Shown in pieces: positions 4,429 to 58,250 of a stretch of DNA of 64,000 nt. The position numbers were made by a program, and so were the translations under genes. The stretch covers positions 5,442 to 69,441 of the forward strand of contig JAJRYS010000018.1 of NCBI GenBank assembly GCA_024275665.1, in the 5' to 3' direction. Origin of the DNA: an archaeon. Lineage in GTDB: Archaea; B1Sed10-29; JAJRYS01. Under the pieces are notes generated by a model. It made no database searches and was not told the origin of the DNA. It saw only the letters and a program-made list of their open reading frames with translations. The stretch's first letter is position 1, and each line of letters begins with the position of its first letter.

Positions 4429-4638
4429 GAAAACCAGCCCCTCATGCTCTTCTTGCTCTTGCTTTCTTCAGCTTTGCTTCTCTTTCTCTTCTTGCTTTCT
4501 CAGCAATCCAGAAAGCTTCTGCTTTTTCAAACGTTATTTCTCCTTTCAACACTCTGAGTTTGAGCTCCAAAGGCCATTCTTTTGGAAAATGAATCATGAT
4601 TGTATTACTCATTACTCGTTTAAAAAAAGCAAAGCAAA

Positions 4639-4782
4639 CGGGCCCGATGGGATTTTCGTGAAGAACTGCACTAAGAGCACGTCTTCTTTCGAACCCACGA
4701 CAACCTGGTTAAGAGCCAGGCGCTCTGCCATTCCAGGGATTAAAAACGCAACACGCTTTAACCCTGACTGAGCTACGGGCCC
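4639..4782 (-). tRNA. tRNA-Lys(CTT) with two putative introns (D-loop about 35 nt, T-loop about 35 nt), none at 37/38
   Basis: Minus strand: acceptor GGGCCCG/CGGGCCC, U8A9, D-stem GCTC…GAGC interrupted, anticodon stem CCTGG/CCAGG with loop CTCTTAA, T-stem GTGGG/CCCAT with TTCGAA loop interrupted by a hairpin-forming insert. Confidence 0.6.
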
Positions 4783-16138: not shown

Positions 16139-17202
16139 GGCAATACCTCGAAAGTAGTTGTAGTGGTTGTTGAAGAGTCATTCAAATAAACTGTGTAATT
16201 CCCTGAAGGCTGCAACGCAGGGTCCCATGAATCACTAACAGTGCCATTTGCACTCGCTGTGAGTGTTTTAGGATATCCTGTAACTGAGTTGTTTGAAGGA
16301 TTTTTTATGTCAATTGTTAGTGTTGAGTAAGGTTCCCAACCAGCCCCTGTAATAATAACAGGAGATCCTATCCGGAATATATAATCCTGTGTTGAGTAAG
16401 AAGAGTTGTGATAAAACCTTACTATTACATGAGTAGAGTTGCAAAGTACTCCTCCTTCTGAGTAAACAGTTATTTCAAACAAAATATCCCTTGAACTGTT
16501 AGCACTTTCAGCTACTATCTTGCCAGTGTTCAAACCATAAGAAGCAGTGGTTGGAATGCTTATGTTTCCGTAAACGACTACGCTGCTACCTGCTGACAGA
16601 TTAACAGAATCCTGTGACAGGGTGATCCAGCCCCCTACTGTCCCTGTCTTTGAAAGGTTTACATTAAGGTTGTAGTCAGATAAGCTTACAAGAGTGAAGT
16701 TAAATTCTTGAACACTTCCCCTTTTTATATTGTAAGAAAAGTAAGAAGGAACTGCATCAAACTCTAATTCATAAGGAGTTACTAATACGAAGCCATCTTC
16801 TGTCATGTAAACAGTAAATACTTGCATTCCAGAGTGATTAAGCCAAGAGCCCCTAACTTCTGGGATTGTTGTTGCGAACACATCTGTTTCTCCAGCTCGT
16901 GTTGAGACTTTTAAACCAATCTCTTTTGACTCCACTGAAGGACCTGCAGTGCTTGGTTTTCCAATATAAGAAGCAGTGAAATTAACCCCGCCAGGAACGT
17001 AAACTGATACAAGAGTTCTTGAACCAGTTCCCTGAGCATATACGTGGTCAGCTGCTGATGCCAGTGCTTCAACTGCCCTTCTTGCTTGCATTATCCTTGA
17101 TGACTCTTGTGAAGACATATAGCCGTAATAAATGAAAGGAGTTAGTATGCCTACTGCCAGAGCCACTATTAAAACATATTCTATTGCTGACTGGCCACGC
17201 AT
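16129..17202 (-). CDS. pilin-like adhesin; start re-set to internal Met giving class III signal peptide
   Basis: ORF track starts 63 codons upstream, but MRGQSAIEYVLIVALAVGILTPFIYY is a canonical class III signal peptide. Confidence 0.5.
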   Translation of the reverse strand: MRGQSAIEYVLIVALAVGILTPFIYYGYMSSQESSRIMQARRAVEALASAADHVYAQGTGSRTLVSVYVPGGVNFTASYIGKPSTAGPSVESKEIGLKVSTRAGETDVFATTIPEVRGSWLNHSGMQVFTVYMTEDGFVLVTPYELEFDAVPSYFSYNIKRGSVQEFNFTLVSLSDYNLNVNLSKTGTVGGWITLSQDSVNLSAGSSVVVYGNISIPTTASYGLNTGKIVAESANSSRDILFEITVYSEGGVLCNSTHVIVRFYHNSSYSTQDYIFRIGSPVIITGAGWEPYSTLTIDIKNPSNNSVTGYPKTLTASANGTVSDSWDPALQPSGNYTVYLNDSSTTTTTTFEVLPCS

Positions 17203-17220
17203 GCTTTTAAAAACGATGAA

Positions 17221-18042
17221 GTGGTATTTAAATCGTTGGTAGCCATGCAGCGTAAGAAAAAAGTTGTGAAAAAACGCAAGACAGCAACTGAAAAGAAAAA
17301 GAAAGAAAACAGTAATCCAAAACCTCTTCCGAGTGAAGAAGAAATTAAAAAAGCAATGCAACAAGCAATAATGAGAGAAGAGAAGATACAAGAGAATAGA
17401 ATAAGCACTGGTATTAAAAAACTTGATTATTACTTGTCAGGAGGGTATCCTTTTCCATCAGTAATCCTAGTAATAGGAAGGCCAGGAGTTGGCAAAACTC
17501 CTTTCGCAATAGCGTTCGCAGCTAAGGGAATTGAGAACGGCAATAACGTATTATACATTTGCTTAAACAACTTTCCTTCTGAAATAAAACAAATAGCTAA
17601 GAAAGTAGGATATTCGCTTGAAAAAGCAACACTAATAGATGCATACTCATGGATTATTGGAAAACAAGGAGGAGAGTACAGCATCTCTGCTTTGAACCCT
17701 ACTAAGATTCTTGAAATCTTAGAAGAGCAGTTGAAAAAGGGTAAAGTTGAAAACGTAATACTTGATTCACTTTCAACAATGTACTTATATCATGATGAAA
17801 AAACCATTCAAAGGTTTGTCCAAACATTTGTAGCAATGATAAAAGAATACGAAGCATGCGGCATTATAATAACAGAACTAGGGACTTGCTCAGAAGAAAT
17901 GAACGCAATGCTTGAATACTTGACTGACGGCACTGTGTTCATTGACAAAGGAAGGATAGTTATTGAAAAAATGGCAGGAGTTGAAGTAAAGAAAAGAGAA
18001 ATGCGTTTTGAAATAACAAAGAAAGGAATTGAAATAGAGTGA
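17221..18042 (+). CDS. KaiC-like/RecA-superfamily ATPase
   Basis: Walker A VIGRPGVGKTPFAIAFA, KaiC-like single domain; Lys-rich N-terminal 60 aa may be upstream of the true start. Confidence 0.65.
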   Translation: MVFKSLVAMQRKKKVVKKRKTATEKKKKENSNPKPLPSEEEIKKAMQQAIMREEKIQENRISTGIKKLDYYLSGGYPFPSVILVIGRPGVGKTPFAIAFAAKGIENGNNVLYICLNNFPSEIKQIAKKVGYSLEKATLIDAYSWIIGKQGGEYSISALNPTKILEILEEQLKKGKVENVILDSLSTMYLYHDEKTIQRFVQTFVAMIKEYEACGIIITELGTCSEEMNAMLEYLTDGTVFIDKGRIVIEKMAGVEVKKREMRFEITKKGIEIE

Positions 18043-18046
18043 GGTA

Positions 18047-18508
18047 ATGAAATTAAAGAAAACACTTCAATTAAAGAAGCCAAAAATTGTTGAAAAAATA
18101 GAAAAAAGCAAAAAGAAAGGAGCTTATTTCACGATAATAAAAAATGGAAAAAATATTTACTTGACACAATACGAAGCCAGAGTAATGGAAGAGATAATAA
18201 AAAAAGGAGGAAGAGCTGCTTCAATAGAAGAGATTGCTGATTCAATTAAAAAAAGACAAGGATGGGTTTCTGTAAAAATAATAAAAAGGACCATTGAAAA
18301 ATTAGAAAAAGCAGGCTACCTAAAAAAGACCAGTGAAAAAAATAAAGAAGTTGTGGTATCCATTAATTTTAACAATTCTTTGAAAGGAGAAAGAAGAAAG
18401 CTTTATGAAAAACTGTTGGAAGAACAAAAATTCCAGAAAGCAATGAAATTAAAATACGGCACTATTGAAGAAAAAAAGAGAATATTAAAAGAATACGGGC
18501 TGATTTGA
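18047..18508 (+). CDS. winged-helix DNA-binding protein
   Basis: MarR/TrmB-like wHTH segment (LTQYEARVMEEIIKKGGRAASIEEIADSI…LEKAGYL). Confidence 0.4.
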   Translation: MKLKKTLQLKKPKIVEKIEKSKKKGAYFTIIKNGKNIYLTQYEARVMEEIIKKGGRAASIEEIADSIKKRQGWVSVKIIKRTIEKLEKAGYLKKTSEKNKEVVVSINFNNSLKGERRKLYEKLLEEQKFQKAMKLKYGTIEEKKRILKEYGLI

Positions 18509-18545
18509 TAATAATTTAAAAAAGAAGAAGATTGTAAATAAACAC

Positions 18546-19757
18546 ATGAAAACTAAAATTATTTTGATAATAATTGCATTACTTAGTAATTCTCTTGCCT
18601 TAATAAGTATAGTTTCACCAATTCCTGACTACACTTATTTTTCAGGAGAAAACGTTGAGGTTCTCGGAAGCATTGGTTTTGAAAACTGCTCAGGAACAGC
18701 AGTACTCTTGGTTGACGGAGTGAAAAAAGAAGAAGCCTCATTCAAAAAAGGAATTTTTTACAAATTGGAAAAACTGTTTGAAAACGCCTCGCTTGAATTG
18801 AACGAAGGCGAGCACTATGTCACTATAACAACTGACTGTGGTGAAAAAGAAACCATTTACTTTAAAGTAAAAAACAAACTAAGCATTGTTTTCAGCACAA
18901 ATGGAGACAAGTTCATGACAGGAGACGTGTTGGAGGTATCTGCTTATGCTTTTAGAAAAGAAAAAATATCAAACATTACTGAGATAATAATAAACAATCA
19001 ATCCTTCATTGGCCACTCTTCAATAAAACTAGAAAAACCTGGAAAAACAAGTGTGTTAATAAGAGCAAAAGATGAATTAGGAAACAGTGCTGAAAAAACT
19101 CTTGACATTGAAGTGTTTAACGAACTAAAAATAGATGTAAGCGTTGGTAAAGAAGAACTGAAACCAAACGAAACCGCAAGCATAACAGTGCTGTGTTTTG
19201 ACGTGCTTGGAAATATGAGAAATTGTAATGCCAGTGCTTACTGGTTCTCTAAATGGGCTCCAATTGATTCCCTCATAATCCCTGAAAACGCTTCACCTGG
19301 AAACTATACAATAAAAATAATCACAAGCAACGGAAGCAACACAGGGGAAACAACAGTAAAAATAAAAGTATTGAGAATTCCTGTAATAAAAGACATCATA
19401 ATAAAAGATGAGTGGTTTGAAGTGATAAGCACTGACCAAAACGGCAATAGTTTCATGACAAAAGTTAATGTGTCTTTTTTTGACAATCAAGGAAGACTAG
19501 TTAAAGAGGAAAACATACTGACAAACAATAAGTACAAAATTAATTTACCTCCTGGGACTTATTCAATTGTAGTTAATACTGCTGGAAAGTCTTTTGAAAA
19601 ACAAGCATCATTAAAAACAAGGGAAAGCACTGCAACAGGAAACATAAGCGGATTAGTGGTTGCTAAGAAAAGAGCAACATTAATAGCAGGGCTTGTAATA
19701 ATTGCATTGACAATAATGGCAGTATTACTACAAAAACGAGATAAAATAAAGCGCTAA
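18546..19757 (+). CDS. secreted surface protein with C-terminal TM anchor
   Basis: N-terminal signal peptide, beta-rich repeats, C-terminal LIAGLVIIALTIMAVLL then basic tail. Confidence 0.45.
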   Translation: MKTKIILIIIALLSNSLALISIVSPIPDYTYFSGENVEVLGSIGFENCSGTAVLLVDGVKKEEASFKKGIFYKLEKLFENASLELNEGEHYVTITTDCGEKETIYFKVKNKLSIVFSTNGDKFMTGDVLEVSAYAFRKEKISNITEIIINNQSFIGHSSIKLEKPGKTSVLIRAKDELGNSAEKTLDIEVFNELKIDVSVGKEELKPNETASITVLCFDVLGNMRNCNASAYWFSKWAPIDSLIIPENASPGNYTIKIITSNGSNTGETTVKIKVLRIPVIKDIIIKDEWFEVISTDQNGNSFMTKVNVSFFDNQGRLVKEENILTNNKYKINLPPGTYSIVVNTAGKSFEKQASLKTRESTATGNISGLVVAKKRATLIAGLVIIALTIMAVLLQKRDKIKR

Positions 19758-19939
19758 AAAGCCTCAGTCCGCCTATCAATCATCATTCGCATGCCGCGGA
19801 AAAGCGTCTGATTGAGGATAATCATCATCGGCTGTTAATAATTATGAAAAATGTTGATTAAACAAACAAATGCTTTTAAATAAAATAAACTCAAACCAGT
19901 TTGAAAATTGATTTAATTATTAAAAACGAAAAAAAAGAT

Positions 19940-20526
19940 AATGAACAAAATAAGAATAAAAAAATTATCAAAAAAAAGAAGAGTACCTTCTTGAATTATT
20001 TCTAGGAGATGGGTATTTTTCAATAGATAAGAATAAGCATTACAAAACTTGTTTTTGTCTAAATCCAAAAAAAGACTTCTTGATAATGCTTAAAGTGGTA
20101 TTATTACTAAAAAAGATTGAGTTAAATTCTTATCTTATTAATAATAATGGATGTGTTGAGGTAAAAGTAAATTCAATACTATTTATGGATTATATGAAAG
20201 AAAGTTTGAAAAAATGGTGGGATGAACCGGAAAGTTATTTACTTGGAGTTATTAGTGGTCTTATTGATTCTGACGGAAATATTGGCAATGGTGAAATAGT
20301 AATAACAAATAAGAACAAAAGTATTTTAAAGAAAGTAAAAGAAATTATTAATAAGAAGAATATTCACACTAAGTTGTGGATAAAACAAAACAAAGGAAAA
20401 GAGGATAAGTGGAAGTTTAATATTTACAAATTGAGAATTGGAACTGCTTTAAAAAACCTTGATCATTGTTCTTTAAAGGTTAAGTTCTTGAATAGTGGGG
20501 ATTCCGCAGCGACTAACAGGCATTAA
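19940..20526 (+). CDS. LAGLIDADG homing endonuclease, double-motif, apparent frameshift in A8 run near 5' end
   Basis: ATG at 19940 gives MNKIRIKKLSKK then stop; the other frame, open from 19959, reads …EEYLLELFLGDGYFSIDKNKH… and continues into the listed ORF containing LGVISGLIDSDGNI: two LAGLIDADG motifs about 100 aa apart. Confidence 0.7.
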
Positions 20527-20647
20527 AAATGCTTGTTAGTTGTAAGGGTAGGGCAGCTTGGAGTGCCCGTCGGGCTCATATGCGTTCCGGTTCCAAAAGG
20601 AACGCGGAAACACCCGAAGGTCAGAGGTTCAAATCCTCTCCCCGCTA
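20508..20647 (+). tRNA. initiator tRNA-Met(CAT) with two putative introns (acceptor stem after pos 4, and 37/38)
   Basis: A1:U72, AGCG|…|GGG acceptor pairing with CCCCGCT, U8A9, D-stem GGGC/GCCC with A14 and G18G19, anticodon stem with three G:C (TCGGG/CCCGA), loop CTCATA, T-arm AGAGG-TTCAAAT-CCTCT, discriminator A. Confidence 0.6.
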
Positions 20648-20743
20648 TTTAACATAATTATAACTGCATTGTTAAGGGAAGATAGTAGAGAAAAAAACCA
20701 TAGGTATTTTAGTATTCTCTGCTGACAACTGTTTCTTGTCTTA

Positions 20744-21229
20744 TTATCTTCCAGAAATTTCATTTAATATTTTTTTCTTAACTTTTTTGTTAAGTTCATT
20801 AATATCAATTTTTTCAAAATCTTTCTTACTTAATTCTTTCCTTAGCTCTAAAATTACTTCATTTGTTGCATTTCTTATTATGCTTTTTATCTCTTTATCT
20901 ATCATTCTTTGATTATTTTGTTTTTTGATAGATTCAATTACACTCTCAATCTCCCATTCATATCTTTCTTTTAAGATATTACTTATTGTATCTTTTTCTA
21001 AATCTCTTATTCTTTTAATATTATTTTCTTCTAATCTTTTCCTCAGTTCTTCTGCCCTGCGTTGTGAGGGGGTCTTCTTAGGCTTGTTAATCTTTTTCAC
21101 TGCTTCTTCGTAAGCTTGCCTGCGTGGATCTGTTAATGGTAGTATTGCCCATTCCCTCTTAATTCCATTAGGTAATGGAGTAAGGCTTGTCTTTTTTTTC
21201 CTGTATTTTTTATGTGGTCTATACACCAT
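20744..21229 (-). CDS. hypothetical basic protein
   Basis: 161 aa K/R/E-rich ORF, no recognisable motif. Confidence 0.35.
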   Translation of the reverse strand: MVYRPHKKYRKKKTSLTPLPNGIKREWAILPLTDPRRQAYEEAVKKINKPKKTPSQRRAEELRKRLEENNIKRIRDLEKDTISNILKERYEWEIESVIESIKKQNNQRMIDKEIKSIIRNATNEVILELRKELSKKDFEKIDINELNKKVKKKILNEISGR

Positions 21230-21313
21230 GCTTTTTTTATGTTATACAATGTTTATAAAGAAAGGAGGCTCCCTTTGGTTCCAGTATTCAACGAGTTTTG
21301 ACGTTGGTTTTTG

Positions 21314-21973
21314 TTATTCGCTTATTTTTTTGATGAATTCTTCTGCTTTTTTAATACTTGGCTGAAAAGGAAAAGAATTAAAAAATTCTTGCACTGAATT
21401 GGTTTCTGTTACCACTTCCAATACTTTCTCAATCAACTCTTTTTCATCATTACTGAGATCAGAATCATAGAGAATAATTCTAACATCATCTCTTAGTACA
21501 GGACTTGAATAAGAATAAATCAAATTAAGAAGATTTAAAGAAAAATTTTCTATGTTCTTATCTTTTATTATTCTGTAGAATATTGCCACAGCATCAAGAT
21601 TTACCTCAGGGAATTTTGGGAGATTAAACATTAAAACATCATCACTTAAGTGCAAAAAATTTACATGATATAATTTTTTCAACTTTCTTGGTTTTTTCTT
21701 ACCTACTTTTGAATAATAATAAGACAAAAGAGTTCTTGCTTTGTTCCAAAAATTGTCTTTTGGAGAATATTCAAGAATTATGTTCTTTTCAACAAGTTCT
21801 CTTAGCTCTTTTTTTTCCAAAAATTTTACAACCTGCTCGCTTGGGGTTTTTCCATAAAATCCTTTTACATTCATTTTTAGCATTTCAACTATTGACTTTG
21901 GAGTCCTAGGAGCTGGAAACCTGCAAAATTCAATTATTTTCTTCCTTACTTCTTCCTTATCATAATTAGTCAT
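21314..21973 (-). CDS. hypothetical protein
   Basis: 219 aa ORF, codon usage consistent with neighbours. Confidence 0.35.
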   Translation of the reverse strand: MTNYDKEEVRKKIIEFCRFPAPRTPKSIVEMLKMNVKGFYGKTPSEQVVKFLEKKELRELVEKNIILEYSPKDNFWNKARTLLSYYYSKVGKKKPRKLKKLYHVNFLHLSDDVLMFNLPKFPEVNLDAVAIFYRIIKDKNIENFSLNLLNLIYSYSSPVLRDDVRIILYDSDLSNDEKELIEKVLEVVTETNSVQEFFNSFPFQPSIKKAEEFIKKISE

Positions 21974-22048
21974 GTTTTACAAAATAAGAAGTTTAAGTAT
22001 AAAAAAGTATTATAGTTATCTCTGGTTTTTTGTGAATATTAAAAATCT

Positions 22049-22291
22049 TTATTTTTGCACTAAAATCATGTCACTTATTGACTTCACTCTTCTGAACAGT
22101 ACGCTGTGTTTTTGAATTAGTTCTTTTGTATTTGAATCTATTCTTGTTAGTGGTTTTGTTAGTATTCTTACTGCTTCCCCTGTTTCCATATTTAGTATTA
22201 CGTCATTTACTTTTCCAATATACTTAGCGTCTGAAGTGTATATGTCCATTCCATATATTTTTGACAAGCTTACAGTCATCTGCGTCACCAT
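22049..22291 (-). CDS. PRC-barrel domain protein
   Basis: 80 aa; DAKYIGKVNDVILNMETGEAVRIL resembles PRC barrel, similar to paralog at 37599-37868. Confidence 0.45.
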   Translation of the reverse strand: MVTQMTVSLSKIYGMDIYTSDAKYIGKVNDVILNMETGEAVRILTKPLTRIDSNTKELIQKHSVLFRRVKSISDMILVQK

Positions 22292-22320
22292 TTAAGGTAA
22301 CGTGTTATTGGTTTAAAAGC

Positions 22321-22446
22321 TTATTCCTTATCTTTTATCAAGCTTACGAATATTTTTCTTTCAAGCTTGTAATCAGAACGCACGTGTCCTATTATTTCTT
22401 CAAGTTCTTTTACAGTCATTTCACCTATTTTCAAGTTTAAATTCAT
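22321..22446 (-). CDS. small ORF (41 aa) with strong Shine-Dalgarno
   Basis: GGAGGTG 7 nt upstream of ATG; MNLNLKIGEMTVKELEEIIGHVRSDYKLERKIFVSLIKDKE; below ORF-track size cut-off. Confidence 0.4.
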   Translation of the reverse strand: MNLNLKIGEMTVKELEEIIGHVRSDYKLERKIFVSLIKDKE

Positions 22447-22455
22447 CAAAACCAC

Positions 22456-22479
22456 CTCCGCATTTATCTAAATGCGGAG
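22456..22479 (-). terminator. 11-bp perfect hairpin between ATPase gene and small ORF
   Basis: CTCCGCATTTA TC TAAATGCGGAG. Confidence 0.4.
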
Positions 22480-22535
22480 CCAATGGGTAATGCTCATTGT
22501 GACTCCGCACGGCTTAACATGTTGTGAAATCACTC

Positions 22536-23795
22536 TCAGTCTGATGAGAGTATTTTTCTTACGTGAGGGGAGAGGGAGTAGATGTACCCTCTTCCCATCA
22601 TGTTTTCTCTTTCTTCTATCAAGGGATAAAGGTCTTTTATAGTGGGCCTGTTTTGTGGTTCGTTGTATTTTCCTTGCAGTCTTTTAAGCATGTGCCTCAC
22701 AGTATCATACTTGTCGTTTATTGATTTTGCTATTTCTACTGCTGTTTTAGGCTCTTCTTCAAACAAGAAAAGGAGTATTCTTCTTTGAAGAGGAGATATT
22801 GCTGTTAATAACTCGTGTTTTTCAAGATTGTAAGTTTGTTTTGGTACAAACTTGGGTGGTTCTCCTTCAACTAATTTTTCAAGGGTGCTTGTTTTTTCTT
22901 CAACTACCTCTATTGCTGGTTCTTCTTTTAACTCTTCTTTTATTGTTGAAAAACTCGGCTCATATATTGGTGTTGCTTCATCTCTTTTCATTTTAAAAAA
23001 TCTTTCAACATCTTCTTTTCTTATCTCATGCTTGTTGTTTTCAATAGCAAACTCTATCATGCGTGAGCAGTTTTCAATTATTTCTCTTGGAATATATTTT
23101 GAGTGTTCTGCTATTTTTTTCATAGCGTTTTCAGTAAATAAGTAATTGTTTGACTTCGCGAGCACTTCTATTCTTTTTTTAATCATGCCTATTGATTCTT
23201 TTTCTGTAAGTGGTCTTAGGCTTTCACATAATTCAAGCCTGTCAATTAAATATTCAGGTATCTTTTTATTTCCTTTTACTAATTCTGTTTTTCCAGCAAA
23301 TATTATTGAGAAGGAGGTTCCGCTTTCTGATAAATTTCTTAAGTATGAAAAAATGTGTTCATCTAATGCGTGAGCTTCGTCAATTATTAATAGTGTTTTT
23401 TTTCTTATTTGTTTGTTTATTTTTTCATAATCATTTTCATCTATTCTTATTAATCCTATTTTTTGAAGTAATTGGTTTCCACATAGCTCTTTTATTTTTT
23501 TTATTAAGTATGTTTTTTCAGGTGGTTCTTCAAATAAAATAACATTGTATTTGTTTTTGAAGTCTTCTGCTATTTTTTTTATCAGGGCTGTTTTTCCAAA
23601 TCCGTACTGCCCGTATATTACTGCGTAGTTTTTGTTCAGTTCTATGAATGAATAAACTTTACTTAGTATGTCTTCGAATCCTACGAATAATTCTGGCATA
23701 GTTACGTGAGTAAAAGGGTTTTTTACTTCCCATCCTTGTTTCTGCTGCCATTCTTCTATTTTTTTTATTTTTTCTTCAAAAAACATGTTTTTCAT
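22536..23795 (-). CDS. AAA+ ATPase with C-terminal winged helix (archaeal ATPase / AAA_22-like), not Orc1/Cdc6
   Basis: Walker A GQYGFGKTAL, Walker B LIIDEAHALD, C-terminal wHTH (LQRRILLFLFEEEPKTAVEIAKSIN…VRHMLKRL); lacks the Orc1 N-terminal LPxRE motif. Confidence 0.7.
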   Translation of the reverse strand: MKNMFFEEKIKKIEEWQQKQGWEVKNPFTHVTMPELFVGFEDILSKVYSFIELNKNYAVIYGQYGFGKTALIKKIAEDFKNKYNVILFEEPPEKTYLIKKIKELCGNQLLQKIGLIRIDENDYEKINKQIRKKTLLIIDEAHALDEHIFSYLRNLSESGTSFSIIFAGKTELVKGNKKIPEYLIDRLELCESLRPLTEKESIGMIKKRIEVLAKSNNYLFTENAMKKIAEHSKYIPREIIENCSRMIEFAIENNKHEIRKEDVERFFKMKRDEATPIYEPSFSTIKEELKEEPAIEVVEEKTSTLEKLVEGEPPKFVPKQTYNLEKHELLTAISPLQRRILLFLFEEEPKTAVEIAKSINDKYDTVRHMLKRLQGKYNEPQNRPTIKDLYPLIEERENMMGRGYIYSLSPHVRKILSSD

Positions 23796-23832
23796 AGTGT
23801 TTGTAATATTCTCTATTCTACTATATAAAAGT

Positions 23833-23976
23833 AACGAGTATTTCCGAGTAATTTATACTCGTTTTACTCGTTAATACTCGTTTAATTACTCGGTATTACT
23901 CGGTGATTTTACAATAATTACTCGTTTTTACCCGTTAGTTTTACTCGTTAATACCCGTTGAATTACTCGTTTACTC
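23833..23976. repeat. iteron array: about 13 copies of TACTCGTT (variants TACTCGG, TACCCGTT), spaced 9-12 bp, first two copies inverted
   Basis: Read directly: AACGAGTA…CGAGTAA…TACTCGTTT TACTCGTTAA TACTCGTTTAAT TACTCGG… TACCCGTT… TACTCGTT TACTC. Confidence 0.75.
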
Positions 23977-24147
23977 TTTTGAATTTAGACAGTCAGGTTC
24001 AGAGCTAACATAATACAAGAAGTAAGCCCCCCCTCTATACTGTTTTTGAAAAATAATTTTTGTTATTGTTTGAAAAATAGCGTTCCTTGTATTGGTTTTT
24101 TACTTATGTGAACAGCCTTTTTTCCTTAAATGCGTCACTGTTTTTTT

Positions 24148-24413
24148 GTGAGGGTTTGTTCTCACTTTAATTTGTGAGAGAAAAACCCTCACTTTTTGTG
24201 AGGATCGTTGAATCCTCACTTTTTTACAAGAGGTTTTTTGCCTTGCTTTCCTCTTGTTTTGTTTTTAATGCGTCACCACACCTGTTTATTGTGTTTCTCT
24301 CACTTTTTAAAACTTTATGCTTTTTTTATATCTCCTTTTTAAACTCTTTTTGTTTTCTCTCACTTTTTTCAAACAAAACCAATTGCAATTATTTTACACT
24401 AATTTCTCTCACT
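24148..24413. repeat. second repeat family: GTGAG(N)CTCAC palindromes followed by direct TTCTCTCACT(T/A)5-7 repeats
   Basis: GTGAGGGTTTGTTCTCAC, GTGAGAGAAAAACCCTCAC, GTGAGGATCGTTGAATCCTCAC, then TTCTCTCACTTTTT x2 and TTCTCTCACTAAAAAAA. Confidence 0.65.
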
Positions 24414-24579
24414 AAAAAAACAAAGATTAATACTTTTTAGTTTATATTAAAAAATTTATTAATTAATGTTAAAATTTTAATTATATTGCATTGTTAATAT
24501 ATATTTCTGTTAATAATATTTTTGGAAATCCTTAAATATGAAAACTCATTAATATAAATTACAATTAACAGGTGAGGCT

Positions 24580-24861
24580 ATGATTACCACTATTTTCTTC
24601 AAGGAAAAACCACTCCGTACCCTAGTATCTTTGGCTGACAATGAAAAAGTTTGGTATGCTTCAATGTTGTGTAAAGAAACAGACTGCACTTATCCTCATA
24701 TGCTGAAAATTCTCGGAATGTTTGAAAAAGAAGGACTGGTTAGAGCAGAGGGGCAGGGAAGGATTAGGATAGTAAGGTTGACTGAGAAAGGAGAAGATCT
24801 GGCTACTGAAGTGAAGGCACTGCTTAGGAGAATTGAAAAGCTTGAAGGTGGGAAAGAGTGA
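24580..24861 (+). CDS. winged-helix DNA-binding protein (93 aa)
   Basis: HTH-like YPHMLKILGMFEKEGLVRAEGQGRIRIVRLTEKG; 4-nt overlap with downstream GNAT-like gene. Confidence 0.5.
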   Translation: MITTIFFKEKPLRTLVSLADNEKVWYASMLCKETDCTYPHMLKILGMFEKEGLVRAEGQGRIRIVRLTEKGEDLATEVKALLRRIEKLEGGKE

Positions 24862-25427
24862 TTAGGGAAGCAGGAATAGAAGACCTTGATGCTTTGGTTG
24901 ATGTTTATCAAAAGGATGGTAGGAAGCATTCAAAGCCGTTAGGAGCTTATCCTGTTGCTGATTGGATTCTGCGCAAGACTGCTGTAGTAGTTCTTCATGA
25001 GAACAAGAAGGGAAAACCAGATGCTTTCATAGTAGTAAGGCCGAAGGGAGAGACAGCGAGCATTGACATGCTTAGTGTTAAGAGGTCTTGTAAAGAAGCT
25101 AATGAGGTTAAGAAGAGGTTGGTTGAGGAAGCTGGTAAGAAGTCAGGAGCGCGTGTGCTTACTGTTTATGTTTCTAAGAGGGACAAGCTTGTTGATTTTT
25201 TCAAGAAGAATGGGTTCAAGTTGGTTGAGGAGATCAAGGAGAGCAAGCAACTATTCTTTGCAAAAACTTTACGTTTATCCAGGAGGAAAAAACCTACAAG
25301 AATATTGCACAAAAAAGGGGTTTTTAAAAAACAGTTGAAAGAAAACCTAAGAAAACTTGAAGAAACATCAGGAGATGAGTTTGGGCCTGACTTGATTGAC
25401 TTGCTTGAAGAGCAAGGAAAATTATAA
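24858..25427 (+). CDS. GNAT-like acetyltransferase fold protein with Lys-rich tail
   Basis: Weak GNAT core (…IVVRPKGETASIDMLSV…KKRLVEEAGKKSGARVLTVYV…FFKKNGFKLVEE). Confidence 0.4.
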   Translation: MIREAGIEDLDALVDVYQKDGRKHSKPLGAYPVADWILRKTAVVVLHENKKGKPDAFIVVRPKGETASIDMLSVKRSCKEANEVKKRLVEEAGKKSGARVLTVYVSKRDKLVDFFKKNGFKLVEEIKESKQLFFAKTLRLSRRKKPTRILHKKGVFKKQLKENLRKLEETSGDEFGPDLIDLLEEQGKL

Positions 25428-25787
25428 GTTTATGCTTAGTTTTTGTTCGTCAAATTCTATTACTTTATTGTTAGCAAGGGTTTTCCAAGCTTCTCCAAGT
25501 CTTCTCACAGCAGTTGAGAATTCAGTGTTTAAGTAGTACTTCATTTGCCTGCGTTCAACCAAACCTAGCGACCTTAAGCGTTTGAATACTTTGTGCATTG
25601 TTGCTTTTGGAATTCCTTTTTCTTTGCAAAGCCTGGCAATGTCATAACCATCTGCTCCTTTCTTTTCTTGTATTGTTTTTAAAAACCAAGCAGCTGCTAT
25701 CCTGTACTTATCTTGTTTTGGATAAATAACTCTGATGAAACCCTCAAAGCTCATTCCTGTTGAAATGCGTTCATGATGAAAGTCCAT
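25422..25787 (-). CDS. winged-helix transcription regulator
   Basis: GYDIARLCKEKGIPKATMHKVFKRLRSLGLVERR. Confidence 0.5.
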   Translation of the reverse strand: MDFHHERISTGMSFEGFIRVIYPKQDKYRIAAAWFLKTIQEKKGADGYDIARLCKEKGIPKATMHKVFKRLRSLGLVERRQMKYYLNTEFSTAVRRLGEAWKTLANNKVIEFDEQKLSINL

Positions 25788-25966
25788 GTCAAAATCTCCT
25801 TTTTAGTAAACCAGTAAGTGGTTTGTAGGATTTCCACAAACAACTTGTTATACTAATAAGTAAACTTATATAAATACTCCTCTGTTGTACTTGCTCAACA
25901 ACCAGTTAAAAGCTAGAAAATAAGAGTTTTAAGGAGTTTGAGTTGGAAATTGCAAGGGTTTACTTT

Positions 25967-26590
25967 TTAGGAGAACATCTTTAGTCTTTGTCCATGAGAG
26001 TAAATCATTAAAATGAACAAGCCTGCTGTGAAGAAAATTAGGAACAAAGGGAATAAGAAGCTTGCAATTGATGGGAACCCTATTGCTTCTGCCACTTGGC
26101 TTATGCTTGAATTCTGCACGCTTACTACGAGTATTGGGGTTGTCTTACTTGTTATTGTTTCCTTGTTTGTTTGTTCAAGTCCCTTAATGCTTCCTATTTC
26201 AAAGAAGTTGGTTTGCGGTTGTGCTTTTTCTATTTTGTATTTTGGTATCACCATTGCAAAAGTTGTTAATAAAAAGAAGAGGATTACAACAGCAAACACA
26301 GGTTTTAATATTTCCACATGGCTTGCTCTTCTTCTGCGTGTTTTCCACTCTTTTTTCAAGAGTTTTACCTTAGTAGTTTTTAAGTTTTTTTCATCTAATT
26401 CTATTATGATTGAGCCAGTATAACCACAATCAGAGCAATAGTATTTTTCTGGTATCCCAAGTCCTACTATTTCTCCTGATTCTGGGTGCAGGGAAGCATA
26501 ATCAATGTTCCTGCTCCCGCATTTGGGGCAGATTAATGCTTTTCTTGTTGTTCTTGTTTTTATTGGCTTTTTTTTCTTTTTTGCAACCAT
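25967..26590 (-). CDS. zinc-ribbon membrane protein
   Basis: CPKCGSRN…CSDCGYTG then 3-4 TM helices. Confidence 0.45.
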   Translation of the reverse strand: MVAKKKKKPIKTRTTRKALICPKCGSRNIDYASLHPESGEIVGLGIPEKYYCSDCGYTGSIIIELDEKNLKTTKVKLLKKEWKTRRRRASHVEILKPVFAVVILFFLLTTFAMVIPKYKIEKAQPQTNFFEIGSIKGLEQTNKETITSKTTPILVVSVQNSSISQVAEAIGFPSIASFLFPLFLIFFTAGLFILMIYSHGQRLKMFS

Positions 26591-26591
26591 T

Positions 26592-26963
26592 TTAATCCCT
26601 GCTTATAACTCTCAATATAGTGTAAGTGTCGTAAATGTTTTTAGTTTTGTCATAACGGCTTTCATCATGCTCTATCACTCTTATGTTTATTTTATACTCT
26701 CCTGGCTGTATTGAATGCTTTCCGTACAATGGTATTGGTATTGTTTTTTCAGTTTTTGGTTTTATGAACCCTATTCTTTTTACTGCTTCTCTTTCCAAAC
26801 CAATCTTGTTAAAGCCAAGAGAGAAAGGAATTTTCACTATGAGCGAAACAAGTTTTGATTCATCTGAGTCATTTTTCACATACACGTTTAGCACTACTGG
26901 TTCTTTTTGTCCAGCAACCATTCTTATTGGAAGGAAGCTTGTAGTGATTTTCATGATAATCAA
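26592..26963 (-). CDS. hypothetical protein
   Basis: 123 aa ORF directly abutting upstream gene. Confidence 0.3.
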   Translation of the reverse strand: MIIMKITTSFLPIRMVAGQKEPVVLNVYVKNDSDESKLVSLIVKIPFSLGFNKIGLEREAVKRIGFIKPKTEKTIPIPLYGKHSIQPGEYKINIRVIEHDESRYDKTKNIYDTYTILRVISRD

Positions 26964-27192
26964 TTACTTATTATGTGTTTTTAACTCTTTTCATACGGGC
27001 ATATTTTGCATGAAAATATAGCACATAGTAAACATAATATTATTGCTTTTTGTTAATAATAACAATAGTATTAACAAAATAATATTATATTTTGGTTATC
27101 TTTTTTATTTTATTGTTTTTTATTAATATTTAACATTTTTTGAAACATTATTGCACTGAATTTTTTGTCTCACAAAAACAAAAACCATAAAA

Positions 27193-27783
27193 TTATTGCA
27201 AAAATTGTTTGTGGATACGGAAATTCAATAACTGCTCGCTGAAAGCATTCAAAACACGCCTAGCAGTGTCTTGTTTTTGCTTCAACCCAGGCACTATGCT
27301 ATTAGGATATACAAACTCAGAGAATTTGTAGTATAATTCCTCAAGCTCGTCGTATAATCCTTCAGCTTCCCTGATTCTTCCTTCTGCAAGAAACTGCATT
27401 CCCACTCGCTTCAACTCTCCGATGGCATCTCCTAAGCCAAGCAAGTAATATTCTGCAGGAATGCTCAAGACAGGTAGTTTTTTGTTCTTCAAATAATTCA
27501 GAAATATCATCAGCTCTGCGTATTCCTGGTAAGCAGTTCCAAGCACTGGTTTCACCATGTCAGGGTGTTTTTTCAACAGCTTCTCAATCCTCTTAATCTT
27601 CATGTCAATCTTCTTAGCACTCTTCCAAGCCTTATCAACCTTCCCCTTCTGCACGTCCCTAATAGCCTGAGCGCACAAGGGAATGATCTCACGCTGTGCT
27701 TTAAGCGCTTCTTCTCTTACCTTGACTTTTTCATCAAGCTCGCTGATAATTTTTTTCATCATTCCAACAACTCCTTTGTTCAT
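27193..27783 (-). CDS. translin-family protein
   Basis: All-helical 196 aa; YLLGLGDAIGELKRVGMQF matches the translin/TRAX YLxGLADLTGELMR motif. Confidence 0.55.
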   Translation of the reverse strand: MNKGVVGMMKKIISELDEKVKVREEALKAQREIIPLCAQAIRDVQKGKVDKAWKSAKKIDMKIKRIEKLLKKHPDMVKPVLGTAYQEYAELMIFLNYLKNKKLPVLSIPAEYYLLGLGDAIGELKRVGMQFLAEGRIREAEGLYDELEELYYKFSEFVYPNSIVPGLKQKQDTARRVLNAFSEQLLNFRIHKQFLQ

Positions 27784-28316
27784 AATTCTTTTACTAAAAA
27801 GTTCCTCTTTTTCTCATCTTTTTTAAAGCCCATTTTTTCATAAAAACCAACAGATTTTCTTAAGCTTTTCACAAAAACCTTCCTCACGCCTCTTTTTTTT
27901 AGTTCTTTTAACATGAAGTTAAGTGCTTTTGCTCCGACACCTTTGTCCCTCAGCTCTTCAGGAGCCCCTGCATTATTTGTTAATGCTTCAAAAGGAAAAA
28001 AATAATCTATTATTGCTGTTTTTCCATCTTTTTTTATCATTACTGAAACATTGCCAACAGGAACGCCTTTCTTATGAAATAACTTTTTCCTATAGTTTAA
28101 TTCATTGACAAGGCTTGTTTTTTTTCTCATTTGGTTAATTACTTTTTCATCAACAAAAACTAAGGAAATTAATTCAGTAGACCCATCAATTTTTTTAAAT
28201 TCCATTGGAGAATCAATCCAAGCAATTCCAGGGTTCTTAATTCTATCCTTCATTCTCAGCCTTTTTTTCTCAGCAATCTTACCCCAGGGTGTTTTTGAAC
28301 GATGTTTGTTAGTCAT
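27780..28316 (-). CDS. GNAT family N-acetyltransferase
   Basis: Motif A RDKGVGAKALNFMLKELKKRG and …VGFYEKMGFK. Confidence 0.6.
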   Translation of the reverse strand: MTNKHRSKTPWGKIAEKKRLRMKDRIKNPGIAWIDSPMEFKKIDGSTELISLVFVDEKVINQMRKKTSLVNELNYRKKLFHKKGVPVGNVSVMIKKDGKTAIIDYFFPFEALTNNAGAPEELRDKGVGAKALNFMLKELKKRGVRKVFVKSLRKSVGFYEKMGFKKDEKKRNFLVKEL

Positions 28317-28645
28317 TTTTTCGCCTTCTTCCTGACCACATAATATTTGTTGCGCCTGCCAATGACTTCCTCAACTTCGTGAACCCATTCATTCACTTGC
28401 CGCATTTTCCTTGGAATGAACCAGATGTTGTACATGCCGATTATCAGTACTGCTAAGTTCAAGTATATGAAGATAGAATCACCTAATAACAAGCTATAAG
28501 CAAGCAACAAAGCCACTCCACTACACAAGAGCAGAGAATAAGCTAAAGGCATGTCGCTTTCCTTCTTTTTCCATACTCTTATGGTTGAAGGAAGCCAGGC
28601 TACTACTAGCAATAATGAACCTATAATTCCAATAATTTTAATCAA
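28313..28645 (-). CDS. small membrane protein (3 TM)
   Basis: IGIIGSLLLVVAWL…LLLCSGVALLLAYSLLL…YLNLAVLIIGMY. Confidence 0.4.
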   Translation of the reverse strand: MIKIIGIIGSLLLVVAWLPSTIRVWKKKESDMPLAYSLLLCSGVALLLAYSLLLGDSIFIYLNLAVLIIGMYNIWFIPRKMRQVNEWVHEVEEVIGRRNKYYVVRKKAKK

Positions 28646-29166
28646 AGCTCTTTCCTCCTGTATGTCCCAGTGCTATGAAGTGATATGTTACTTTCATATT
28701 TTCCTTTTTTTTCTCTTAGTATTTCCCCAGATTTTTCTTTTAACATTCTGGCAATAGGTTTTGGGATTTCTTTAAACTTCTTGCGTAGAATAGATAATTT
28801 TTGCCCACTGATATACACTTTTTTCAGAATAACTTTATTCTTATTTCCTCTTGCTATCAAGCACAAAGCATCATATTCTTCAGGAGAAAGTTCTAATGTT
28901 TTTTCTTTATTGAGAGGGATTAGTACAACTTCTCTTTTTCTTATTTTTTTCCTATTATTTTTATGAATTATTTCTTCTTCGAGAGTAGTATGTATTGGAA
29001 AAGGAAATAATATTGGCCGCATGATGTTTTCTTTTTTTATTTCAGGAAGGTTTTTTGCGTTCTTAACATTCTTTGTTAAATATGAGCTTAAGTTTGACTT
29101 TTTACCTATTAAGAGTTGATGGAGCCCCCTTTTCCGCGTTTTCATATGCTCATCTCCTTTTAACAC
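28642..29166 (-). CDS. hypothetical protein with possible GerE/LuxR-like HTH
   Basis: LSPEEYDALCLIARGNKNKVILKKVYISGQKLSILRKKF resembles LuxR-type HTH. Confidence 0.3.
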   Translation of the reverse strand: MLKGDEHMKTRKRGLHQLLIGKKSNLSSYLTKNVKNAKNLPEIKKENIMRPILFPFPIHTTLEEEIIHKNNRKKIRKREVVLIPLNKEKTLELSPEEYDALCLIARGNKNKVILKKVYISGQKLSILRKKFKEIPKPIARMLKEKSGEILREKKGKYESNISLHSTGTYRRKEL

Positions 29167-29668
29167 TTTTCCAAGCTTCTTTTTTTCTCTTTTTAATTTC
29201 CTCTTCTTGTTTTTTAATCAAGTCCCTGAAATAATTTTTAACCCTCTTTGATTGGAATGAATCATCTAATTTAAGAAACATTGCTGCTTGTTCCAACAGT
29301 TCCTGCTTCCTTTTATCAATGCTAAACTTTCTTGCAAGTTTTTTTCCTTTCTTAATGTCTGTTAACATCGTTCCAAATACCTTTTCTTCTTTACCAGGTC
29401 TTATTACTAAACCTTTCCCCTTTGGAAGAAAGAATACTCTTCGCACTCCCCCCTTTTCGTCAAGGTAGGTTTCTATGAAAAGAGGTTGCATGAAAACATT
29501 TTTTTCAAGGCCTCTTTCCATCATCTTTGCTTTTATCTCCTTATCTTTTGCAAGGTCTTTTATTATTGTGCGGGAAACTACAGTTTTTTTTCCTTTAAGT
29601 ATTCTTCCTATATCTGTGAATATGCGAGTATATTGTGTTAGTTTAGGATTTTTTTTAACTCTCCTCAT
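29150..29668 (-). CDS. hypothetical basic protein
   Basis: 172 aa; first gene of overlapping five-gene operon. Confidence 0.35.
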   Translation of the reverse strand: MRRVKKNPKLTQYTRIFTDIGRILKGKKTVVSRTIIKDLAKDKEIKAKMMERGLEKNVFMQPLFIETYLDEKGGVRRVFFLPKGKGLVIRPGKEEKVFGTMLTDIKKGKKLARKFSIDKRKQELLEQAAMFLKLDDSFQSKRVKNYFRDLIKKQEEEIKKRKKEAWKSVKRR

Positions 29669-29754
29669 TTAATCAACCTTTTTTGGTAGTGTCTTTTTAA
29701 ATCTTGTTTTTCTTTGCTCATTATTTTTATTCTTTTCTTATTATAAAATAAGGC

Positions 29755-30513
29755 ATGGTGATTAATGAAGAGGAGTTTCAAGAAGTAAGAAAAGCTGTTG
29801 AAGGAAAGAAAACCCTGATCCTTGTTGGTAATTGTTATGCAGAATATTATGGGCGTGCTACTTCTAAGATTGCTGAAGGAGACCGCATAGTAATCATAAA
29901 ACGTGATGGGAGTTTCTTAGTGCATCAGAACAAAAAACTAGCAGCCATCAATTACCAACCCCCGAATTCCAGAGTGTCATGCGAATTGCTTGACGGGTGC
30001 TTGTTGCTGCAAGCGAGGAATCCTAAGAAGAAGGAAATGCTGAAGGTTCTCTTCAATAAATTGTATTATGCCGGCTCTTTTGAATTGAAAGATGATGAAA
30101 ACATCACAGTGTTTGCTACGGAGGAAGACCTTGCCAGGGATTTGATGCAGGACTTGTCAGTAATAGAAGAAGGACTGGTTCCTTTGAAGAACGAGGCAAT
30201 GGTATTGAAAGGGTTCATTGACATCCTGGCAGAAGACAAGCAAGGAAGGCTCGTAGTGATAGAAGTTAAGAGAAGGGTAGCTACTCTTGACGCTGTTTCG
30301 CAGTTGAAAAGGTATGTTGCAGAAGTAATGAAGGAGAAGAACAAGCCAGTGCGCGGCATTCTCTGTGCTCCCAGCATTTCCCCCAATGCTCATGCGTACC
30401 TACTGAGAGAAGGGTTTGAGTACAGGAAAATAGAATACGACCCTCTTAACAAGGAGAAATGGATTAAAGGAGTTTCAAAAAAACAAAAACCATTAGCAGA
30501 GTTCATGAGCTGA
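29755..30513 (+). CDS. nucS: endonuclease NucS (EndoMS)
   Basis: RecB-like nuclease motifs IDILAED…LVVIEVKRR…QLKRY; 252 aa two-domain size. Confidence 0.75.
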   Translation: MVINEEEFQEVRKAVEGKKTLILVGNCYAEYYGRATSKIAEGDRIVIIKRDGSFLVHQNKKLAAINYQPPNSRVSCELLDGCLLLQARNPKKKEMLKVLFNKLYYAGSFELKDDENITVFATEEDLARDLMQDLSVIEEGLVPLKNEAMVLKGFIDILAEDKQGRLVVIEVKRRVATLDAVSQLKRYVAEVMKEKNKPVRGILCAPSISPNAHAYLLREGFEYRKIEYDPLNKEKWIKGVSKKQKPLAEFMS

Positions 30514-48357: not shown

Positions 48358-48527
48358 CGCCTCGGGCAGGATTTTCTCACCGTCCAGTTGGCTTTTTTCC
48401 GCTGTGAAGCGGAAACCAGGCCACTTCAGCTTCAGCTGAATGTGGTCTCAGCCAGCCGGATACGGATGTTCGAACCTGCGGTCTCACGGTTAACAGCCGT
48501 GCGCTTTAGCCACTAAGCTACCGAGGC
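48358..48527 (-). tRNA. tRNA-Asn(GTT) with about 100-nt intron in T-loop (59/60)
   Basis: Minus strand: GCCTCGG TA GCTT AGTGGCTA AAGC G CACGG CTGTTAA CCGTG AGAC CGCAGG TTCGAA [insert] T CCTGC CCGAGGC G. Confidence 0.6.
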
Positions 48528-58162: not shown

Positions 58163-58250
58163 CTCCTTAACAATTAAATTAAAATACTGGAATAGTATAA
58201 CTATTAACAGTTATTGTATTTGTTAAATAAAAACTTAGGAGGTCTATGAA

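Follow-up and report, generated by a model that had tools for sequence, protein, structure and literature searches.

We analyzed an intergenic region in a 64-kb stretch of archaeal DNA, which is called the window throughout, meaning the whole stretch at its full length. Judging from the neighboring proteins and from the labels on their homologues, the organism belongs to the Micrarchaeota (DPANN archaea). The region comprises positions 23796-24579 and, with 784 bp, is the longest non-coding stretch of the window under a crude gene model, in which an 88-aa open reading frame (ORF) at 24174-24440 was not counted as coding when the gaps were ranked. The window is very compact: seven gaps exceed 250 bp, and nearly every other gap is shorter than that. 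The gap at 23796-24579 separates two divergently oriented genes, which encode an ATPase on the minus strand and a 93-aa winged-helix protein (wHTH, for winged helix-turn-helix) on the plus strand. It contains two arrays of short motifs, named A and B, and an AT-rich segment. The features of the gap and of its two flanking genes are as follows.

22536-23795, minus strand: AAA+ ATPase of 419 aa, consisting of AAA+ base, lid, linker and C-terminal winged helix
23822-23830, minus strand: TATA box of the ATPase operon (TTTTATATA on the minus strand), with an A copy 3-4 nt upstream, at the position of the transcription factor B recognition element (BRE)
23833-23979, plus strand: array A, 13 copies of tTACTCGkT, 2 facing the ATPase gene and 11 facing away, spacing 8-13 bp
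24014-24033, plus strand: composite site in which TACAAGAAGTAAG, a degenerate A copy, precedes a C-run (C7)
24110-24138, plus strand: conserved block GAACAGCCTTTTTTCC followed by AATGCGTCAC
24148-24412, plus strand: array B, (C/T)TCTCAC(T)TTT, three palindromic pairs and then direct copies
24294-24308, 24354-24368 and 24403-24412, plus strand: three direct TTTCTCTCAC units, after the three palindromes
24354-24421, plus strand: conserved terminal module CTCAC-T6-CAAAC..TTGCAATTATTTTA..N..TCTCTCAC-A7-CAA
24413-24530, no strand: AT-rich segment of 8-20% GC, candidate unwinding element
24531-24579, plus strand: promoter of the wHTH-GNAT gene pair, with the TATA box CTTAAATAT at 24531-24539 and the Shine-Dalgarno motif AGGTGA at 24570-24575
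24580-24861, plus strand: 93-aa winged-helix protein with weak Pfam wHTH matches

The motif of array A is strongly concentrated in the gap. Exact matches to TACYCGKT occur 12 times in the window, and 11 of these lie in 23833-23971; 2.0 were expected window-wide, and none of 100 shuffles reached 12. Two one-mismatch copies (23844-23851 on the minus strand and 23972-23979) raise the array to 13 copies, in agreement with a preliminary description of the locus, which had reported about 13 copies of an 8-mer with the first two inverted. The copies start at 23833 and 23844 (both inverted), 23856, 23865, 23875, 23887, 23897, 23919, 23929, 23942, 23952, 23964 and 23972, and their spacing is 8-13 bp except for a single gap of 22 bp. 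Near-consensus A-site pairs at a distance of 8-13 bp were found nine times in the window, always within array A, while 0.26 were expected. Elsewhere in the window, the sequence TACTCATTACTCGTT at 4606-4620 consists of two overlapping A-like motifs (a TTACTCATTACTCGTT pair) and precedes, by a few nucleotides, a possible small ORF on the minus strand. The pair was rejected as chance level, given its spacing of 7 bp and the 74 one-mismatch sites in the window.

Array B has a different organization. YCTCAC is not enriched window-wide (55 matches versus 49 expected); nine copies lie within 24148-24412, where about 0.2 were expected. The array begins with three GTGAG..CTCAC palindromes at 24148-24165, 24174-24192 and 24198-24219, of which the last is a perfect 8+8 palindrome. 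The direct copies that follow include two identical 15-mers (TTTCTCTCACTTTTT) at 24294 and 24354 and a third copy at 24403-24412. Both the palindromes and the direct repeats had thus been recognized correctly in the preliminary description. It had also listed a third short repeat occurring twice, which holds for AATGCGTCAC (exactly two occurrences, 24129-24138 and 24267-24276); the 12-mer given at that time differs at one base between the copies. The AT-rich stretch was likewise found as described. It separates the last B unit from the wHTH promoter, has a GC content of 8-20% (50-bp windows, about 24400-24545) and contains a tandem TGTTAATA..TAT repeat at 24492-24521.

The window was compared with eight orthologous loci that contain a complete upstream gap (L001, L004, L005, L034, L036, L038, L040 and L041), giving nine loci in total. 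The ATPases of the eight loci are 46-61% identical to the window ATPase. Gene order is common to all eight loci, with the ATPase-operon gene order scored in loci with enough flank: on one side of the gap lie the genes for the wHTH protein, the GNAT protein and a 121-aa protein, and, further on, those for proteins of about 200 aa and 119 aa; the genes for the ATPase, a PRC-barrel protein and a protein of about 220 aa lie on the other side, and the wHTH and GNAT genes as well as the ATPase gene point away from the gap. The conserved order reaches at least 4-6 kb to each side in eight other genomes, and the contigs concerned are as long as 568 kb. Long contigs with the locus are JGI1358J11329_10000001 (568 kb, with the locus near 172 kb), Ga0190313_1000005 (238 kb), CAZBZN010000008.1 of GCA_964496415.1 and the source contig of 76 kb.

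In all eight loci the gap has a length of 737-1098 bp and a GC content of 0.20-0.39. When k-mers occurring three times or more in a gap were counted in an unbiased manner, only two families emerged, TTACTCG.. and CTCTCACTT.., and the rest of the gap sequence has diverged among the nine loci. Both motif families were found at the same position in 8/8 orthologous loci, so that the repeats withstood the test that had been set for them in the preliminary description, namely their presence at the orthologous position in relatives. Array A has 6-13 copies per locus, which are located in the first 200-340 nt beside the ATPase gene. Across the nine loci its modal spacing is 10 bp (21/50 intervals); distances of 12-14 bp and 19-23 bp come next. 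Array B has 6-8 plus-strand copies in 9/9 loci, and its spacing is irregular (7-127 bp, median 42 bp), with a weak phasing at 10.5-11 bp. It is almost wholly of one orientation in the other loci; the palindromes of the window add minus-strand copies. The layout is the same in every locus: array A over the ATPase TATA box, then the B sites, the AT-rich stretch and the wHTH promoter. The AT-rich segment is less marked in L005, which has a higher GC content. Compared with the flanking sequence, the motifs are roughly 10-fold to several hundred-fold denser in the gaps.

Several further elements of the gap were also found in other loci. The composite site, written as TAC..GAA-N-C(4-7), is present in 6/9 loci, in five at the distal end of array A and in L005 inside the array, and it is the sole match per whole locus except in L036, which has two, both within the gap. 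The element GCGTCACC was found in L001 and L004 as well. The terminal module is near-identical between the window and L001 and is recognizable in L004, L036, L040 and L041; across loci it reads CTCAC-T6-(C/G)AAAC..GCAAT-ATTTT..CTCTCAC-A-run. Together with the distal GCAATTATTTTA (about 24384-24395), it may be a candidate distal BRE/TATA element with a start site. Taken together, these data establish the feature as real and non-random, with deep conservation within one Micrarchaeota clade.

Array A is closely connected with the promoter of the ATPase operon. A module consisting of an A copy, 3-4 nt and TTTATATA was found in 6/9 loci, in five of them with an exact A copy and in L040 with one mismatch in that copy. 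All nine loci have a TATA-like element inside array A or bordering on it, and in several loci further A copies are present between the TATA box and the start codon. On the opposite side of the gap, TTTAAATA and AGGTGA are at a constant distance from the wHTH start codon in all loci. The preliminary description had left the choice between an origin, a partition site and a regulatory hub. Of these, the role as a regulatory hub is directly supported, because in each of the loci array A extends across the BRE/TATA elements of the ATPase operon.

Next to the gap, the ATPase gene probably starts at M4 (23786, the NCBI start). The protein has the Walker A motif GFGKT and the Walker B motif IIDEAH, and its AlphaFold2 (AF2) model, with a predicted local distance difference test (pLDDT) score of 82, comprises an AAA+ base, a lid, a disordered linker of ~55 aa (residues 271-325) and a C-terminal winged helix. 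Motifs and model thus bear out the initial description of a Walker A/B ATPase with a C-terminal winged helix. Pfam assigned the protein to AAA_22 (3e-13, 50.7 bits versus a cut-off of 27). The best NCBIfam match was TIGR03015 (XrtA/PEP-CTERM-associated ExeA-type ATPase), at 59.7 bits and thus far below the cut-off of 324.5. No match to Cdc6_lid or Cdc6_C was obtained at E <=0.01, and an hhalign comparison of the ATPase family profile with the Cdc6 protein of the window aligned only 34 columns at the P-loop, with a probability of 41%. Because Cdc6 domains are missing and the profile alignment is restricted to the P-loop, membership in the Orc1/Cdc6 family was rejected on sequence. The predicted fold is closest to those of Cdc6/Orc1, TnsC/MuB and DnaA, and Foldseek ties Cdc6 with RuvB. 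Cdc6/Orc1, TnsC/MuB and DnaA share ATP-dependent polymerization on DNA. With its AAA+ base, lid and C-terminal winged helix, the model has the fold of the initiator clade. According to this model, the ATPase is an initiator-clade-like AAA+ protein of the DNA-polymerizing kind outside the Orc1/Cdc6 family. It differs from ExeA/GspA-like AAA_22 proteins (TIGR03015) and from TnsC/MuB in that it has no peptidoglycan-binding or transposase partner, carries a C-terminal winged helix and is found in a fixed chromosomal context.

Close relatives of the ATPase are rare. A search of 5.8 billion clustered proteins gave only about a dozen. They all come from uncultured archaea; the single one with a name is labeled Micrarchaeota. 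In 11 orthologues Walker A, Walker B, R186, R237 and the recognition helix of the winged helix (YDTVRHMLKRLQGKY) are invariant. A HMMER scan revealed about 100 clusters (50% identity) of relatives of about 350 aa that combine AAA_22 with a BlaI-like winged helix, as well as about 12,000 more distant ExeA-like proteins; all orthologues and the roughly 100 wider relatives share the combination of AAA_22 and BlaI-like winged helix. A comparison with the PADLOC defense models gave only weak P-loop and winged-helix matches. The 93-aa wHTH protein is also well conserved: its orthologues are 59-69% identical, and its recognition helix DCTYPH is invariant in 9/9 loci.

Two distant ATPase relatives with 27% identity, in loci L043 and L046, were inspected. 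Their upstream gaps are short (90-130 bp) and contain a few inverted TTCAC(G/A) sites around a TATA box; a small wHTH gene alongside and an A array within these short gaps are both missing. Since TTCAC sites occur there in the absence of both the small wHTH gene and array A, the comparison suggests that the TCAC-type motif (array B) would be recognized by the winged helix of the ATPase, and that the clade-specific array A would go with the likewise clade-specific 93-aa wHTH protein. In L043 the PRC-barrel gene is kept downstream, and the ATPase homologue is located 4.4 kb from a canonical cdc6 gene, which is preceded by a 427-bp gap (1569-1994) with the ORB-like (origin recognition box-like) dyads TTCTCCTGTAGAAAT, GTTTCTCGTAGAAAT and TTTCTGTTGGAAAA. 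The same gap also holds CCCTCTCACCCC, an element whose core equals the B motif, possibly by coincidence.

The two invariant recognition helices and the two invariant motifs would fit together. We regard the region as very probably a two-array hub of predicted binding sites for the two flanking winged-helix proteins, with the core promoter of the ATPase operon as part of it.

Beyond this, we propose that the region is a candidate clade-specific chromosomal replication origin of a non-ORB type, which would at the same time be the control region of both divergent operons. We assign a probability of roughly 40% to this reading. It is based on the size of the gap, its conservation, its architecture, the neighboring AAA+ protein of the DNA-polymerizing type, and the lack of an ORB cluster in the window; the position of the L043 homologue 4.4 kb from a cdc6-adjacent ORB-like gap also backs it. 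In the proposed mechanism, one winged-helix protein would cover the phased copies of array A on one face of the DNA helix and, by virtue of the A copy at the BRE/TATA, the occupancy of array A would also set the transcription of the ATPase operon. The ATPase, presumed to be an intact initiator-clade AAA+ protein with its winged helix on a flexible linker of ~55 aa, would bind the other array and oligomerize head-to-tail in its ATP form. The complex would abut the easily melted AT-rich segment, where the duplex would open and MCM would be loaded. The canonical Orc1/Cdc6 protein, encoded 33 kb away, may take part. With regard to the readers, we lean towards the ATPase for array B and the 93-aa wHTH protein for array A.

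The surroundings of the cdc6 gene are relevant for this proposal. The Orc1/Cdc6 gene at 56951-58162 is the sole Pfam-verified one in the window (Cdc6_lid and Cdc6_C) and is 33 kb from the gap. Its upstream gap (58163-58250) has a length of 88 bp and contains no repeats, as had been stated for its flanks in the preliminary description. The gene forms a divergent pair with a SepF-family gene, and the distance of 88 bp in the window corresponds to 101 bp in a relative (L167, 2900-3000), again without repeats; in L167 a gene for PolD DP2 lies near the pair. The cdc6-sepF pair is thus a replication-division gene pairing without an origin-like spacer in two genomes. Because cdc6 has no origin-like gap here or in the relative, the origin must lie elsewhere. 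For the same reason the term "second origin", which had been suggested for the locus, was dropped: a first origin is not visible beside cdc6 in either genome. In the literature searched, no replication origin of Micrarchaeota was found mapped or described.

The core of ORB and mini-ORB elements is a TTCC..GAA dyad, e.g. TTCCAGTGGAA (PMC1904270). Allowing at most one mismatch, TTCCNNNGGAA had no match in 23796-24579 and formed no cluster anywhere in the window. The raw cumulative GC skew over the window merely tracked gene orientation and was replaced by a test at the third codon position, in which, at each candidate switch point, strand x side served as the predictor of GC skew and AT skew (in coding sense) in a regression. 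The statistic peaked at 20-23 kb with the polarity of an origin, i.e. with a leading strand richer in G and T (scan-corrected permutation p=0.02). This switch, the only signal related to replication, gives weak support to the proposed origin.

Several results weigh against an origin. The asymmetry of the skew is confined to genes to the right of the gap and has a broad plateau (16-25 kb), and counting the ATPase gene among those on the left lowers the statistic. The consensus sequences of A and B lack the TTCC..GAA core of ORBs. By sequence, the ATPase is AAA_22/ExeA-like and resembles the Cdc6 protein of the window only at the P-loop. The B sites are situated on one side only of the AT-rich segment and the wHTH promoter on the other, whereas classical archaeal origins have inverted ORBs on both sides of the unwinding element. 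Furthermore, because L043 and L046 have ordinary autoregulated promoters, the ATPase family is not intrinsically tied to origin-sized arrays. Finally, to our knowledge, the PRC barrel, the 219-aa protein and GNAT have no replication role.

A comparison with known origins gave a mixed picture. The region resembles the ORB/mini-ORB-containing oriC regions of Pyrococcus, Sulfolobus, Methanothermobacter and Haloferax in that it is a long conserved gap in a compact genome with multiple short motifs of the initiator type and an AT-rich segment. The adjacent gene, which encodes an AAA+-lid-winged-helix protein with Cdc6/Orc1 as best structural matches, is a further likeness, and the composite of motif and C/G-run is reminiscent of the full ORB (mini-ORB plus G-string). 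The region differs from these origins in that its motifs lack TTCC..GAA, the adjacent ATPase fails all Orc1/Cdc6 sequence tests, the true cdc6 gene is 33 kb away, the AT-rich segment is not flanked by inverted sites, and two motif families are present. In bacterial oriC, low-affinity DnaA boxes of the same orientation (9-mers in an ~11-bp register) template a DnaA-ATP filament beside the unwinding element. The region may resemble this arrangement as it is known from E. coli oriC; the present system differs in that the organism is an archaeon without DnaA, and the ATPase has no helix-turn-helix domain IV and carries its winged helix on the ~55-aa linker. A plasmid origin of the iteron type (17-22-bp iterons with ~22-bp spacing and a rep gene) was rejected on the basis of the 8-12-bp motifs, the irregular B spacing, the missing Rep gene and the chromosomal gene order.

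An extension of the origin reading is more speculative, and we consider it unlikely. In this extension, the clade would have moved origin recognition away from ORB and Orc1/Cdc6 to a DnaA-oriC-like arrangement of phased 8-mers and about seven oriented sites, which would be read by the ExeA-like AAA+ protein and the 93-aa wHTH protein, and Cdc6 would act only as a downstream loader of MCM.

Three further genes of the two divergent operons bear on the alternatives.

21314-21973, minus strand: 219-aa protein of unknown family, downstream in the ATPase operon
22049-22291, minus strand: PRC-barrel protein of 80 aa (PRC match 1.3e-9), downstream in the ATPase operon
24858-25427, plus strand: 189-aa GNAT-like protein, with a 4-nt overlap with the wHTH gene

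Orthologues of the GNAT protein match Acetyltransf_1/7/10; the window protein itself has no Pfam match. With its 4-nt overlap and the small DNA-binding gene in first position, the wHTH-GNAT pair might be a module of a GNAT toxin and a DNA-binding antitoxin, but its gene order is fixed across the clade, which is atypical of mobile toxin-antitoxin loci. The orthologues of the 219-aa protein are 39-46% identical to the window protein. Pfam, NCBIfam and PDB gave no match for this protein, the homologue search returned only the protein itself, and its single-sequence AF2 model has a pLDDT of 46. PRC-barrel proteins function in archaeal cell division (bioRxiv 10.1101/2023.03.28.534520), and an AAA_22 partner is not mentioned in the literature on PRC-barrel gene neighborhoods. 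In two loci a ParA/MinD-like (CbiA) gene is located about 1.3 kb downstream of the ATPase gene on the opposite strand (L004, 12496-13272; L038, 7627-8409).

The alternative that survives best is a purely transcriptional hub, although we still regard it as rather unlikely. In this case A and B would be operators with which the winged-helix proteins auto- and cross-regulate the ATPase-PRC-219aa and wHTH-GNAT operons, with no role in replication or segregation. The A copy at the BRE, 3-4 nt upstream of the ATPase TATA box, and the additional copies between TATA box and start codon in several loci are in line with this view, as is the fact that both flanking genes encode DNA-binding proteins with invariant recognition helices. 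The small promoters of the distant ATPase homologues, with inverted TTCAC repeats around the TATA box, have the classic layout of autoregulation, and the wHTH-GNAT pair with its 4-nt overlap resembles an autoregulated antitoxin-toxin module. However, 6-13 phased and 6-8 further sites in 737-1098 bp of non-coding DNA by far exceed usual archaeal operators, and this extent has been held although nearly all other gaps of the window are shorter than 250 bp. In addition, the AT-rich block and the constant number of B sites would be left unexplained, and an oligomerizing initiator-clade AAA+ protein would not be needed.

The gap could also be a centromere-like or chromosome-organizing site, which seems improbable. 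A winged-helix adaptor would polymerize on array A, as in ParR-parC and TubR-tubC, and the ATPase, possibly with the PRC-barrel protein, would provide the link to segregation or division. A hallmark of parC- and tubC-type centromeres is a set of short direct repeats that have a 10-12-bp register and lie over the promoter of the operon next to them, and array A has this organization. More specifically, the Type II/III plasmid centromeres (parC-ParR of R1/pSK41 and tubC-TubR of pBtoxis) are alike in their short direct repeats, 6-13 in number and about one helical turn apart, which straddle the promoter of the neighboring operon, and in their small DNA-binding adaptor, which in the case of TubR is a winged-helix protein. 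A role in division would agree with the PRC-barrel gene, which follows the ATPase gene in all loci and in one distant lineage, and PRC barrels act in archaeal division; the ParA/MinD-like gene of L004 and L038 points in the same direction. Yet that gene is missing from the window and from the other loci, and the operon encodes neither a ParM, TubZ or ParA motor nor another cytomotive or ParA-type NTPase. AAA+ proteins of the Cdc6/TnsC/DnaA type are not known as partition motors, the locus is chromosomal and conserved, and the additional B array and the AT-rich block would have no role in such a site.

A very unlikely explanation is that the gap encodes an RNA or a micro-protein, for example a minus-strand sponge transcript with repeated GUGAGAG motifs or a small ORF. 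The terminal module resembles a BRE/TATA element with a start site, hairpins followed by T-runs are enriched in the gap (four found versus 0.4 expected), and the B sites vary in spacing and number like the motifs of sponge RNAs. Against this, the gap matched no Rfam family at gathering thresholds and none at E <=5, and the 88-aa ORF at 24174-24440 is conserved in none of the relatives. A search for a small conserved ORF in the gaps yielded matches only between the closest pairs of loci, and these matches were spread over several frames and both strands, indicating conservation at the DNA level. Array A, too, is expected to act at the DNA level, because it is helically phased and straddles the TATA box.

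A plasmid or virus integrated here, with the gap as its origin or partition site, might be suggested by a GC content of 0.29-0.35 across ~18000-30000 (versus 0.37-0.45 in the flanks) and by a nearby LAGLIDADG ORF and tRNA, but this reading is largely refuted and highly improbable. The gene order is kept for at least 4-6 kb on both sides in eight other genomes, with contigs as long as 568 kb, so that the low-GC region was not inserted recently, and those neighboring genes that were examined showed no integrase. Searches of 72,556 plasmids and 50,697 phage records gave no ATPase homologue, and a scan of viral contigs for A-motif pairs (at least 120 loci) yielded nearly exclusively lone pairs that were read as chance, with the multi-copy loci L053, L078 and L105 left out. 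The earlier label "plasmid-derived" was therefore abandoned.

Some additional observations were made in the window. Two Rfam tRNA matches that were missed by ARAGORN, at 20546-20642 on the plus strand and at 48455-48520 on the minus strand, scored just over the gathering score (32.0 and 32.7 bits, respectively). With a length of 97 nt, the first one probably contains an intron. A free-standing LAGLIDADG_3 homing-endonuclease-like ORF (20080-20526, plus strand, 1.8e-8) ends 20 nt before this match. In a 431-bp gap, a tRNA-Lys(CTT)-like gene with interrupted D and T regions (GGGCCCGTAGCTCAG ... CCTGGCTCTTAACCAGG ... GGGTTCGAA ... CGGGCCCG) is located at 4640-4782 on the minus strand; it has an Rfam score of 22.8 bits, under the threshold, and could be a multi-intron tRNA of the kind known in DPANN archaea. 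Lastly, with provisional gene boundaries, an ORF at 16129-17391 with an archaeal pilin-like signal (QSAIEYVLIVALAVGIL) overlaps the start of the opposite-strand gene for a KaiC/RecA-like P-loop protein (17221-18042).

The clear motifs and the two candidate binding proteins make the region testable in vitro without cultivation of the organism. A role confined to regulation or to a centromere-like function would still leave a cis-element that, for a streamlined genome, is unusual in its elaborate build and its deep conservation. If the region is an origin, archaeal origins need not be ORB-based, and the uncharacterized AAA_22-winged-helix family (about 100 clusters at 50% identity) would be tied to DNA transactions. 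It would also provide a landmark with which metagenome-assembled genomes can be oriented and the growth rates of uncultured DPANN archaea can be estimated. Should the proposed shift of origin recognition be true as well, it would represent a new kind of archaeal initiator-origin pair.

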